Shown one piece after another: positions 16,917-42,568 of a stretch of 64,000 nucleotides of DNA; position 1 is the stretch's first letter; each line of letters opens with the position of its first letter. The stretch lies in assembly GCF_001677475.2 (NCBI RefSeq), contig NZ_CP015229.1; one strand, given 5' to 3'. A program made the translations under genes and the position numbers. This stretch comes from Escherichia coli. Its GTDB lineage: Bacteria > Pseudomonadota > Gammaproteobacteria > Enterobacterales > Enterobacteriaceae. Under the pieces are notes generated by a model. The model was not told the origin of the DNA. It searched no databases and saw nothing but the letters and a program-made list of their open reading frames with translations.

Positions 16917-17106
16917 TAAAGGCGCCGAAGCGCCTTTCAAATTGATGACAAAGTGCGTTTTTATGCCGGATGCGGCGTGAACGCCTTATCCAGCCTACAA
17001 GATCGTGCAAATTCAATACATTGCAGAGACCATGTAGGCCTGATAAACGAAGTGCATCAGGCAATGTTGAGTTTGTCATCAGCCTCAAAGGCGCCGAAGC
17101 GCCTTT
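16917..17106. repeat. REP pair (BIME/RIP-like): two inverted REP units with a linker, bracketed by duplicated hairpin AAAGGCGCCGAAGCGCCTTT
   Basis: REP unit TGCCGGATGCGGCGTGAACGCCTTATCCAGCCTAC (about 16964-16998) and inverted unit TGCCTGATGCACTTCGTTTATCAGGCCTAC (about 17033-17064); identical 20-bp hairpins at 16918-16937 and 17087-17106. Confidence 0.8.
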
Positions 17107-26943: not shown

Positions 26944-27127
26944 ATTTCTCTGAGATGTTCGCAAGCGGGCCAGTCCCCTGAGCCGATATTTCATACCACA
27001 AGAATGTGGCGCTCCGCGGTTGGTGAGCATGCTCGGTCCGTCCGAGAAGCCTTAAAACTGCGACGACACATTCACCTTGAACCAAGGGTTCAAGGGTTAC
27101 AGCCTGCGGCGGCATCTCGGAGATTCC
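26944..27127 (+). ncRNA. ssrS: 6S RNA
   Basis: Matches the E. coli 6S RNA as I remember it from ATTTCTCTGAGATGTTCGCAAGCGGGCCAGTCCCC to GGCATCTCGGAGATTCC; ends approximate to a few nt. Confidence 0.9.
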
Positions 27128-27750: not shown

Positions 27751-27810
27751 GGGCGACACACCTGCATCGCCCTGATTGACATCGTTGATTCTTTAACCTA
27801 ATTTAGTGAG

Positions 27811-27951
27811 TAAGGGTAAGGGAGGATTGCTCCTCCCCTGAGACTGACTGTTAATAAGCTGGGAAACTTATGAGTAACAGTACAATCAGTATGATGACAA
27901 GTCGCATCATAACCCTTCTCCTTTAAGCCCTCGCTTCGGTGAGGGCTTTTC
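27811..27951 (+). ncRNA. sibC: Sib-family antitoxin sRNA (SibC), antisense to ibsC
   Basis: Promoter TTGACA (27776-27781), 17-nt spacer, TAATTT (27799-27804); terminator hairpin AGCCCTCGCTTCGGTGAGGGCT plus T-run at 27926-27951; ends approximate. Confidence 0.65.
27851..27910 (-). CDS. ibsC: type I toxin peptide IbsC, 19 aa (MMRLVIILIVLLLISFPAY as translated here)
   Basis: Minus-strand ATG 27910..27908 to TAA 27853..27851; short hydrophobic peptide fully inside the antisense sRNA. Confidence 0.7.
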   Translation of the reverse strand: MMRLVIILIVLLLISFPAY

Positions 27952-29626: not shown

Positions 29627-30286
29627 TCATTTCACAATGGTTTTGACACCGTCAGGTGTGCCAATCAGCGCAACGTCCGCGCCACGGTTAGCAAACAAGC
29701 CAACAGTCACCACGCCAGGAATCGCATTTATGGCGTTTTCCATCGCTATCGGGTCAAGGATTTCCATGCCGTGGACGTCGAGGATCACGTTGCCGTTATC
29801 GGTCACCACGCCCTGACGGTATTCCGGACGACCGCCCAGTTTCACCAGCTGGCGCGCCACTGCACTACGTGCCATCGGGATAACTTCTACTGGCAGCGGG
29901 AATTTGCCCAGAATATCAACCTGCTTGGAGGCGTCGGCAATACAGATAAATTTTTCCGCAACCGAAGCAATGATTTTTTCACGGGTCAGCGCCGCGCCGC
30001 CGCCTTTGATCATTTGCATGTGGCCGTTGATTTCATCTGCGCCATCAACGTAGATGCCAAGGCTGTCGACTTCGTTGAGATCAAAAACGTGAATGCCGAG
30101 GCTTTTCAGTTTTTCAGTGGAAGCATCTGAACTGGAAACGGCCCCTTCAATCTGGCCTTTCATTGTACCGAGCGCGTCAATAAAGTGTGCGGCGGTGGAA
30201 CCTGTACCTACACCAACAATGGTGCCGGGCTGAACATACTGAAGTGCCGCCCATCCTACTGCTTTTTTCAATTCATCCTGCGTCAT
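29627..30286 (-). CDS. rpiA: ribose-5-phosphate isomerase A, 219 aa
   Basis: ORF 29627..30322; start at [10 protein letters not shown] (ATG 30286..30284) gives the K-12 length. Confidence 0.9.
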
Positions 30287-30322
30287 GATCGTTTCGCCTG
30301 TGGTATGAAATTTCACACGCAT

Positions 30323-30520
30323 TATACTCTAAATAATTCGAGTTGCAGGAAGGCGACAAGAGAGTGACAAATTCGTCAGGAACGAATTTGCCCAGCCGCA
30401 GGCTGGCCTTCGGTGAGAGACATGGATGTCTCTCATTAATCCCCAGGAGCTTACAGAAGTAAGTGACTGGGGTGAGCGAACGCAGACGCAGCACATGCAA
30501 CTTGAAGTATGACGAGTATA
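30323..30520. repeat. ERIC/IRU element, long form with a ~70-bp internal insertion
   Basis: Contains the ERIC core AAGTAAGTGACTGGGGTGAGCG; collinear with the inverted copy at 42381..42507 except for extra DNA at about 30368-30437. Confidence 0.8.
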
Positions 30521-30566
30521 TACAAAAAAAGCGATTCAGACCCCGTTGGCAAGCCGCGTGGTTAAC

Positions 30567-30770
30567 TCATCCATAAAATATCGCGCAATGGCGGGCATCC
30601 CCTTTCGCCCGGCAAATAAAGCATACAACGGTCTGGGTATGCCGCTCCACGGTGCGAACAGAGGCAATAACGCCACGCCATTCAACATAACCAGGGCGCG
30701 AAGTCGCTAAGCGAAATGCAATAGCGCAAATCCCTGATCTTTTAAGCTGCGCGTTTAACCATTGATACAA
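30567..30770 (-). pseudogene. yqfE: short ORF in the rpiA-argP spacer, possibly the yqfE remnant
   Basis: Only the ORF track (67 aa) and its position; no recognisable domain. Confidence 0.2.
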
Positions 30771-30862
30771 ATGTTACCCACCGACGGCTTCGGTATATGC
30801 AACCTGACACAAAATTGTGTCATAGTGCAGGAAAAAGCATTTACCAGGAGCAGACAACAGCA

Positions 30863-41050: not shown

Positions 41051-41250
41051 GCTTTTGGCGAAAAATCCCCGCAGAGCGGGGCTCAGACAGATATCAATGT
41101 GCGCTTTGTCATGCCGGATGCGGCGTGAACGCCTTATCCGGCCTACAAAAACCTGCAAATTCAATATATTGCAGGATACGTGTAGGCCTGATAAGCGTAG
41201 CGCATCAGGCAACTTTTCTTTTGGCGAAAAAAAGACCCGCAGAGCGGGCC
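41051..41250. repeat. REP pair (BIME/RIP-like) bracketed by a ~30-bp direct repeat containing a small hairpin
   Basis: REP unit TGCCGGATGCGGCGTGAACGCCTTATCCGGCCTAC and inverted unit TGCCTGATGCGCTACGCTTATCAGGCCTAC; flanks TTTTGGCGAAAAA..CCCGCAGAGCGGG at 41054-41083 and 41220-41250. Confidence 0.8.
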
Positions 41251-42354: not shown

Positions 42355-42380
42355 GTCTCTTGTCCTGTATCGTCGGGCCT

Positions 42381-42507
42381 TATACTCGTCATACTTCAAG
42401 TTGCATGTGATGCGTCTGCGTTCGCTCACCCCAGTCACTTACTTATGTAAGCTCCTGGGGATTCACTCTCTTGTCGCCTTCCTGCAACTCGAATTATTTA
42501 GAGTATG
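42381..42507. repeat. ERIC/IRU element, short ~127-bp form, in the pgk-fbaA intercistronic region
   Basis: Contains both ERIC core strings (ATGTAAGCTCCTGGGGATTCAC and the reverse complement of AAGTAAGTGACTGGGGTGAGCG); inverted relative to the copy at 30323..30520. Confidence 0.85.
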
Positions 42508-42568
42508 AAAAAGTGCGTGCTTTAAAAGCGCGCTGCAACAAGGGCAGGTTTCCCTGCCCTGTGATTTT

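Follow-up and report, generated by a model that had tools for sequence, protein, structure and literature searches.

A four-hairpin insert in the ERIC element upstream of Escherichia coli rpiA, probably a member of a module family found across Gammaproteobacteria

The DNA studied here is a stretch of 64,000 nucleotides from Escherichia coli contig NZ_CP015229.1 (RefSeq assembly GCF_001677475.2), to which we refer, at its full length, as the window. Open reading frames and the annotation of matching RefSeq genomes identify one part of it as a serA - rpiA - (LysR remnant) - argP - scpA segment of the E. coli type. Between rpiA and the LysR remnant/argP, positions 30323-30520 are occupied by a copy of the ERIC/IRU repeat, an element reportedly described by Sharples & Lloyd in 1990 and Hulton et al. 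in 1991, and this copy measures 198 bp because a 127-bp backbone is joined by a 71-bp insert. The features that matter for the following analyses, each with the evidence on which it rests, are listed here.

29627..30286, minus strand: rpiA coding sequence as in RefSeq genomes, 660 nt, 219 aa, MTQDEL... (open reading frames and RefSeq annotation)
30321..30326 (30326-30321), minus strand: perfect -10-like hexamer TATAAT straddling the ERIC terminus on the rpiA-sense strand, with a putative promoter function (read from the sequence; also in empty alleles)
30323..30520, plus strand: complete ERIC/IRU element, 198 bp, at a TA of the rpiA upstream region (alignment, terminal repeats and empty-site alleles)
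30323..30366, plus strand: ERIC left arm up to the insertion point, ...GAGAGTG (alignments)
30367..30437, plus strand: 71-bp four-hairpin module nested in the ERIC at G^AATCC ('type A' insert), boundary +/-1 base (absent from the 127-bp alleles L004 and L007; matched by covariance model R1, see below)
30368..30390, plus strand: hairpin 1, a 9-bp stem CAAATTCGT/ACGAATTTG with loop CAGGA, arms 30368-30376 / 30382-30390 (inverted-repeat scan; the stem covaries in 113 relatives)
30392..30406, plus strand: hairpin 2, CCAGCC-GCA-GGCTGG, arms 30392-30397 / 30401-30406 (inverted-repeat scan; relatives)
30407..30413, plus strand: hairpin 3, a CCTTCGG mini-hairpin with a C(UUCG)G-type loop (aligns with the conserved CCC-GNAG-GGG hairpin of relatives)
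30414..30435, plus strand: hairpin 4, TGAGAGACAT-GG-ATGTCTCTCA, arms 30414-30423 / 30426-30435 (inverted-repeat scan; relatives)
30438..30520, plus strand: ERIC central hairpin and right arm, with the loop variant CTTACAGAAGTAAG specific to this locus (alignments)
Within 30438..30520, plus strand: second insertion site in the right arm, GAGCG^AACGCAG, empty in the window (alignments)
42381..42507, minus strand: uninterrupted 127-bp ERIC used for comparison (alignment)

An original prediction, made from the letters of this DNA, had described the rpiA copy as collinear with the one at 42381..42507 except for about 70 extra bp at roughly 30368..30437, and the alignment of window positions 30310-30530 (plus strand) with the reverse complement of 42370-42520 bears this out. 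The two copies are identical at 124 of 127 shared positions (3 mismatches), have the same ends and centre, and are separated by a single gap of 71 columns with collinear ERIC sequence on either side. The extra DNA occupies 30367-30437 or 30368-30438 (one A at the junction is ambiguous), falls inside the ERIC boundaries at a fixed internal site after GAGAGTG, and leaves an exact ERIC consensus when it is taken out; its own ends, ACAAATTCG... and ...TCTCTCATT, show neither inverted termini nor a duplicated flank. The surrounding element has the hallmarks of an ERIC, being an imperfect palindrome of ~127 bp with TA at both ends, an intergenic location, a stable long stem-loop fold and empty sites in relatives. 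An inverted-repeat scan recovered both its terminal inverted repeats (30323-30347 / 30496-30520; 25-nt arms, 80% complementary) and the central ERIC hairpin.

The same prediction had read the insert as three consecutive hairpins. All three of the palindromes that it named are present (hairpins 1, 2 and 4), and the count falls one short, the small CCTTCGG hairpin at 30407-30413 having been overlooked. The folding energy of the 73-nt insert was -32.5 kcal/mol versus -18.2 +/- 2.8 kcal/mol for shuffles (z -5.2). The 198-nt element, folded as RNA, reached -85.5 kcal/mol for the plus strand, a value matched by 0 of 200 shuffles (z -9.0), and -80.0 kcal/mol for the minus strand (z -7.6). In the predicted fold, the outer ERIC stem and the central hairpin are retained and the hairpins of the insert form in the weakly paired middle of the ERIC. 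We give practically no credence to the idea that the three palindromes arose by chance in DNA that is locally duplicated or of low complexity: nothing but the small size of the hairpins speaks for it, z-scores between -5 and -9 and identical inserts at five E. coli loci speak against it, and the finding of at least 120 homologues with compensatory changes (see below) refutes it. On the minus strand of 30366-30392, the complement of hairpin 1 followed by ACTCTCTTGT was flagged as terminator-like in the rpiA sense, and it could attenuate read-through from the LysR remnant.

Having delimited the element, we searched 351-bp and 751-bp rpiA regions against 5,426 complete E. coli genomes and recovered several states of the site. 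It is empty in ~5,370 genomes (~99%); in 44 genomes the span is 71 bp shorter than in the window, and both of the examples examined (L004 and L007) hold a plain 127-bp ERIC; and in 7 genomes (four E2348/69 records, VCSW5, VCSW7 and AST215) it is 78 bp longer. The state of the window itself, an ERIC with insert A alone, was found in 0 of the 5,426 genomes and is thus seen in the window only. The longer alleles L002 and L003 have the same 71-bp insert together with a second insert of 78 bp in the right arm at GAGCG^AACGCAG, the site that a 78-bp 'type B' module fills in E2348/69 and AST215. Every filled rpiA allele examined (L002, L003, L004, L007 and the window) has the loop variant CTTACAGAAGTAAG (ACAGAAG), in place of which ERICs at other loci read ...CATAAG, and this shared variant points to one ERIC insertion event at rpiA, followed by gain or loss of inserts in place. 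The DNA flanking the 127-bp allele is identical to that flanking the +A allele (100% in H118-H120), and the allelic series could have been produced by precise excision and insertion or by gene conversion between ERIC copies.

The position of the element relative to rpiA differs from what had been predicted, namely an element right next to the rpiA start codon and, with it, a highly structured leader. The annotated start is at 30286 and the ERIC begins 37 nt upstream of it, the ATG at 30322 being merely the first in-frame start of the longest mechanically called open reading frame. In a locus alignment of seven genomes, empty-site alleles of K-12-type and O157 genomes read CACACGCAT|TATATAC and filled alleles read ...CAT TATACTC...GAGTATA TAC.... 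On the rpiA-sense strand the empty site is TTTGTATATAATGCGTGTG, which holds a perfect TATAAT; the ERIC entered at a TA here, and the hexamer is restored by the TATA with which the ERIC ends. If this TATAAT is the -10 box of rpiA, transcription would start near 30314, and the whole ERIC would consequently lie upstream of the -10 box, replacing the -35 and spacer DNA, and outside the leader. A 5' end of rpiA ~33 nt upstream of the ATG, which Hove-Jensen & Maigaard reportedly described in 1993, would agree with such a start. A consensus promoter scan of the filled and empty rpiA alleles detected a full sigma-70 promoter in neither. The junction sequence suggests that the element probably lies upstream of the rpiA -10 box and not in the leader, and that the rpiA transcript likely starts downstream of the element; a highly structured leader is accordingly not what the sequence supports.

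The opposing view, in which the ERIC and its insert form part of the rpiA 5' untranslated region and modulate rpiA expression through a highly structured leader, seems improbable to us. It can appeal to the short distance of 37 nt from the rpiA start, to the very stable fold on both strands, and to a LysR-type remnant open reading frame upstream on the same strand, from which read-through could carry a longer transcript across the element. Yersinia ERICs are reported by De Gregorio 2005 to be co-transcribed, with an effect on mRNA stability. Such co-transcription and stability effects in Yersinia (PMC2229807) count for this view as well, but the perfect TATAAT stands at the junction in all alleles, 35-40 nt upstream of the ATG, the scan shows no full sigma-70 promoter farther upstream, and ~99% of complete E. 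coli genomes are without the element, which is therefore not needed for rpiA control. At rpiA the element thus appears to be a strain-variable passenger that replaces DNA upstream of the -10 box. The site would offer a natural series of four steps (empty, ERIC, ERIC with one insert, ERIC with two), with the -10 hexamer rebuilt each time, and hence a ready-made test of how an ERIC and its inserts affect a neighbouring promoter.

Variation is also seen in the LysR-type remnant that separates the ERIC from argP and corresponds to the yqfE region of K-12. In a comparison of window positions 30520-30800 with loci L005, L006 and L007, the window and the O157 type are without 45 bp that the K-12 type has, and strain GF4-3 has an intact LysR-family gene at the position of the remnant.

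Relatives of the insert were sought, in one genome per species, with the pattern GACAAATNNNNNNGGANNNNATTTGN{20,45}CATGGATG, in which only loop and stem-end bases are fixed and for which we estimate ~0.2 chance matches. At least 120 matches were obtained. Many came from Gammaproteobacteria outside the enterobacteria, namely Rheinheimera (several per genome), Arsukibacterium, Alishewanella, Halomonas/Vreelandella, Microbulbifer, Rhodanobacteraceae and Lysobacteraceae (Xanthomonadales genomes being among the hosts), Methylomonas and Gilliamella, and others came from Yersinia, Pectobacterium, Brenneria, Hafnia, Citrobacter, Enterobacter and E. albertii. RNAalifold recovered four hairpins from the 113 distinct copies, in which 97.1% of stem cells are standard pairs (22-40% with partners slid) and 513 cells show two-sided changes (57-101 in the slid controls), values that were reached by 0 of 500 shuffles. 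At each stem position that the pattern left free, two to four kinds of pair occur (for example CG 43, GC 42, AU 12, UA 11). The four stems are kept by compensatory changes, and, as G-U pairs are far more numerous than A-C mismatches, the strand as written is the structured one. A conserved, covarying module therefore extends well beyond the enterobacteria.

A covariance model (R1) built from these relatives, with rough E-values, gave 137 matches in the ~0.9 Mb of fetched loci that were searched, ~30 of them outside the pattern. The 64-kb window has exactly one match, at 30366-30438 (75 bits, E 9e-14), a score that is not independent because the window copy itself went into part of the model. 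This copy has the features of the family, namely the four hairpins in order and the GAC...ATTTG-RAC and (R)TAA ends. Rfam at gathering thresholds gave no match at the element, either in the window or in eight related loci, and at E <= 10 window positions 30250-30600 matched only V_AS5 (RF02818, 22.7 bits) and Ysr49 (RF02766, 14.5 bits), within 30322-30516 and far below threshold. Both are 'sRNA' (small RNA) families, from Vibrio and Yersinia, and may simply be ERIC copies. The search of the plasmid collection returned chromosome-like records only, no mobile-element annotation lay beneath the matches, and a full-text literature search for the motif sequence yielded nothing relevant. Among known classes, a tRNA intron, an integron attC site and a self-cleaving ribozyme were rejected for the module (no Rfam match, no R'/R'' boxes), as was a classical miniature inverted-repeat transposable element for the 71-bp insert (no inverted termini, no target duplication). 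Elsewhere in the window, ES036 (CssrF) at 16999-17041 and 41147-41189, 6S RNA (ssrS) at 26944-27127 and a Sib RNA at 27776-27926 matched at gathering threshold, which fits the E. coli map.

Within ERICs, the module occurs as three kinds of insert. A genome-wide search, which had been proposed together with the original prediction, found insert A in 615 genomes, generally in one copy each and always at the same ERIC position, at differing loci that besides rpiA include panC-rpnC (O157:H7), the side of ybfA, ybhM-ybhN (together with B) and the region upstream of gyrA. Its orientation at four E. coli loci is fixed by the ERIC host, and the same site A is also filled in Citrobacter and Pseudocitrobacter. 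Insert B was found in 649 genomes, at loci including yeiS-preT and dxs-yajO, and type B inserts occur in Yersinia, Pectobacterium, Brenneria, Enterobacter and E. albertii. A type C insert occupies a third ERIC site, TTGCAG^G. The hairpins of inserts A and B align one to one, and the differences between them are compensatory. Within the Enterobacterales a given subtype occupies the same ERIC site in different genera, from which it follows that long ERICs are old sublineages, which would now travel with the ERIC host or be transferred from one ERIC copy to another through excision, insertion or gene conversion.

Two shortened copies were also seen. In E. coli GN25 (ybfA side; L011 1150-1265), the ERIC has the first 35 bp of insert A and then the right arm, an internal deletion having taken out the rest of the insert and the ERIC centre. 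At the dxs-yajO ERIC (L010 1190-1270 compared with L009), the type B insert of one strain is 12 bp shorter and without hairpin 3, which shows that the module can lose individual hairpins.

In every context that has an uninterrupted counterpart, the module sits seamlessly between G and AAY, with no inverted termini and no target duplication; the junctions seen are G^AATCC, G^AACGC, G^AATCG and G^AACTG. The host contexts, with the source of the empty site, are as follows.

ERIC site A: GAGTG^AATCCCC (empty alleles at the same locus)
ERIC site B: GAGCG^AACGCAG (alignment of the rpiA locus)
Rheinheimera/Arsukibacterium palindromic repeat: GGGCC-GA-ATCGAGCC (empty copies in L017 and L060)
tRNA 3'-end copies: GGTTCGA[module]ATCC... 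(followed by an exact copy of the last 18 nt of the neighbouring tRNA-Gln or by the T-stem of tRNA-Tyr)
Rhodanobacteraceae/Lysobacteraceae hairpin: G^AATCC (module removal restores the perfect palindrome ATTCCGGC-GAAA-GCCGGAAT)

For the Rhodanobacteraceae hairpin, no uninterrupted host was found in the same loci, and its empty site is deduced only from the restored palindrome. The repeat of Rheinheimera and Arsukibacterium is a palindrome of ~100 bp (...ACCGTTG...ACGGCG..., outer arms GCTTGCTC/GAGCAAGC; L017 ~2795, minus strand, and L060 ~5061) with hairpin loops of its own, CGGAC or CAGGGATG, and in those genomes it serves as the principal host of the module.

Several copies lie behind or within tRNA genes. 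The densest array belongs to an uncultured gammaproteobacterium (CALLCZ010000023.1; L069 11060-11830), in which five modules, one of them nested, stand within ~600 nt directly behind tRNA-Gln, the first and the last each followed by the last 18 nt of that tRNA-Gln, and together provide ~ten GGA hairpins. The array has the look of an RNA with multiple sites, yet accumulated insertions could explain it equally well. Two module units stand behind tRNA-Ser in L016. In a gammaproteobacterial metagenome-assembled genome (JACVQI010000125.1; L066 5500-5760), a tRNA-Ser(GCT)-like gene is interrupted in both the D-loop (GGTCGA^...) and the T-loop (GGTTCGA^...), where the T-loop module is partial and a third module is nested on the other strand. 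ARAGORN called no tRNA at this interrupted gene, which is presumably a dead tRNA copy.

Two further contexts are well-known parts of the K-12 genome. The rrnB T1-T2 spacer contains a full module (R1: 62.9 bits, E 3e-14) that reads GACAAATCCGCCGGGAGCGGATTTGAAC...GGCGGGCAGGACGCCCGCCATAA and lies at L133 238-313, equal to E. coli K-12 NC_000913.3 4171837-4171912. It sits inside a duplicated 5S rRNA 3' end, GAGTAGG[module]AACTGCCAGGCATCAAAT (a junction also written GAGTAGG[module]AACTGCCAGGCAT), and this copy is present in 3,982 of the 5,426 E. coli genomes, in a median of two places each. We take the rrnB T1-T2 stretch to be part of the terminator cassette of pKK223-3, pTrc99A and pBAD-type vectors, in which case the module would be present in many laboratory plasmids.

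The second context is the tyrT operon, whose repeats (RtT, or rttR) were reportedly described by Bosl & Kersten in 1991. In the K-12 tyrT region there are four RtT units (RF00391, 133-137 bits), each of which consists of the 3' part of tRNA-Tyr, AAGGTTCGA[...]ATCCTTCCCCCACCACCA, interrupted at GGTTCGA^ATCC by a diverged module; rttR is one of the repeated units of that operon (PMC3318445). R1 aligns with the four units weakly (15-17 bits), and a permissive Rfam scan of the L069 array matched RtT RNA over the full model with 23.5 bits (gathering score 45). The insert of the window is not itself an RtT RNA: positions 30250-30600 gave no RF00391 match even at E <= 10, and the module there is flanked by ERIC arms, not by a tRNA 3' part (T arm and acceptor end ...CCA). 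In a full-text search, no publication was found that links tyrT or RtT with ERIC. One covarying module, to which the insert belongs, thus connects three features that are usually treated separately: insertions in ERICs, the tyrT-operon RtT RNA and the rrnB T1-T2 spacer.

This distribution bears on the direction of change in ERICs, because a long ERIC could in principle be ancestral and the 127-bp form a deletion derivative into which nothing was inserted. The site-specific subtypes shared by several genera (A in Citrobacter and Pseudocitrobacter; B in Yersinia and others), which must hence be old, and the identical flanks of the 127-bp and +A alleles at rpiA would suit such a history. We nevertheless hold it to be very unlikely, as removal of the insert gives the exact ERIC consensus, the large majority of ERICs are uninterrupted, and the module occurs at three different ERIC positions, always with a G^AAY-type junction. 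It also occurs in non-ERIC DNA (the rrnB spacer, RtT units, Rheinheimera repeats and tRNA 3'-end copies), and in Rheinheimera and Halomonas-type genomes, which are ERIC-free lineages, it is found at many sites.

We next considered the loops, most of which retain a GGA of the CsrA type. Systematic evolution of ligands by exponential enrichment gave the CsrA consensus RUACARGGAUGU, in which ACA and GGA do not vary and GGA is favoured in the loop of a hairpin (PMC4347634). Hairpin 4 of the window reads AGACAUGGAUGU, which resembles this consensus: its loop region, AGACATGGATGT (30418-30429; also ACAUGGAUGU), agrees at 10 of 12 positions and keeps ACA and GGA, so that the GGA, ideally ACA-N-GGA, expected of a CsrA-type site in a hairpin loop is present in the letters. 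A possible though doubtful alternative is that the module is a CsrA/RsmA-binding RNA unit, copies of which titrate or recruit CsrA from transcripts or tandem arrays. The GGA loops of hairpins 1 (loop CAGGA) and 4 are ~40 nt apart, enough for one CsrA dimer, and the strand favoured by the G-U pairs is the one with GGA. Some 24 non-ERIC copies, detected by R1 and not by the fixed pattern, have hairpin 4 loops CAGGAUG, CAGGGAUG, CAGGACG, CAAGGACG or CACGGAUG and mostly NNGGA in hairpin 1; their hairpin 4 loops conform to CA(N)GGA(N)G (CAGGATG, CAGGGATG, CAGGACG, CAAGGACG, CACGGATG). That such loops persist beyond the enterobacteria is striking. The rrnB copy has CGGGA and CAGGACG, and the five modules in 600 nt behind tRNA-Gln in L069 would suit such a role as well.

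Set against this are the numbers for orientation, with 17 sense and 16 antisense copies between co-directional genes and thus no bias, as well as the lack of any CsrB, CsrC or Rsm match in Rfam (best RsmY, 12 bits versus a gathering score of 57). The GGA has been lost with the hairpins kept in ERIC type C inserts, in one Yersinia site-A insert and in the K-12 RtT units; at rpiA the GGA strand is antisense to rpiA, and the promoter scan shows no plus-strand promoter; and part of the apparent conservation is ascertainment, since GGA and CATGGATG were fixed in the first search. Neither a small RNA gene of its own nor a preference for sense copies in transcripts was therefore seen for the module. 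CsrA binding is at present a lead rather than a finding, and we attach a rather low probability to it.

Taken together, we consider it very probable that the window contains an ERIC that lies at a TA upstream of rpiA and whose left arm carries a nested 71-bp module from a family spread through the Gammaproteobacteria. This family would fill three fixed ERIC sites (C, A and B), form the core of RtT and sit in the rrnB T1-T2 spacer, and in genomes of Rheinheimera, Arsukibacterium, the Halomonas type and Xanthomonadales it would also interrupt copies of tRNA 3' ends as well as other palindromic repeats. The element is most likely nested selfish DNA, and the module may be, or may have been, a selfish insertion element whose spread requires a single strand, of DNA or RNA, in folded form. 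Several observations weigh against so simple an account. No transposase, such as a cognate tyrosine (HUH) enzyme recognising the hairpins, or other mobilising function was identified, although no protein search was made; the ties of subtype to context (A to ERIC site A, B to site B, the rrn type to rrn ends) do not support recent free hopping; the allelic series at rpiA could come from gene conversion between ERIC copies; the orientation counts rest on crude mechanical open reading frame calls; and the conserved GGA with its near-invariant loops is unexplained by a purely selfish model and could reflect an RNA function in the host.

A bolder, tentative proposal, which we think less likely to be right than wrong, is that the insert is a copy of an uncharacterised class of small mobile modules: seamless, site-specific, 70-85 nt long, with four covarying hairpins, G^AAY(C) targets across the Gammaproteobacteria (the tRNA T-loop GGTTCGA^ATCC, the 5S 3' end, and loops of ERIC and other palindromic repeats) and two nearly invariant loops that are CsrA-type GGA sites. 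If this were true, a single element would appear in three guises, as ERIC inserts, as RtT RNA and as the rrnB T1-T2 spacer, and its transcription in the appropriate orientation could spread a capacity for CsrA binding to new places.

Among known systems, the closest to the window copy is the ERIC/IRU family, with which it shares the 127-bp palindromic backbone, the TA target, the intergenic location, the single long stem-loop and the presence or absence among strains (PMC2229807, PMC10969869). It differs in its length of 198 bp, owing to the nested insert, and in lying in a divergent promoter region and not between co-transcribed genes. Insertions into ERICs have a history of their own, since Sharp and Cromie et al. 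are said to have reported in 1997 that specific internal sites of ERICs can hold insertions of ~70 bp with which a well-folded structure is preserved. The window copy resembles these long ERICs in the size and specific internal site of its insertion and in its folded structure. ERICs with ~70-bp insertions were the subject of both reports (Sharp 1997, Mol Microbiol 24:1314; Cromie, Collins & Leach 1997, 24:1311; both cited in PMC3696847), and the window element is one further long ERIC of this kind, which probably leaves the rpiA leader unaltered. What may be new is the module shared by ERIC inserts, RtT and the rrnB spacer, its spread across the Gammaproteobacteria and its fixed G^AAY junctions.

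The other likenesses concern the module. The K-12 RtT (rttR) units of the tyrT operon share the four-hairpin module in a diverged form without GGA loops, whereas the window copy keeps them, and the rrnB spacer copy has a pseudo 5S end in place of an ERIC as its host and belongs to another subtype, with hairpin 4 loop CAGGACG. CsrB / RsmZ-type RNAs share GGA loops of the form CA(N)GGA(N)G, several per RNA as in the tandem arrays; unlike them, the module of the window comes without an independent small RNA gene, an Rfam match or an orientation bias. Finally, like REP/REPIN elements with their RAYT proteins and IS200/IS605-derived elements, the module has hairpins at both ends, no terminal inverted repeats and no target duplication, together with seamless insertion by a short fixed sequence and a strand-specific structure. 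This resemblance is one of style only, as the transposases of IS200/IS605 and REPIN elements read specific hairpin sequences, whereas the stems of the module covary freely.

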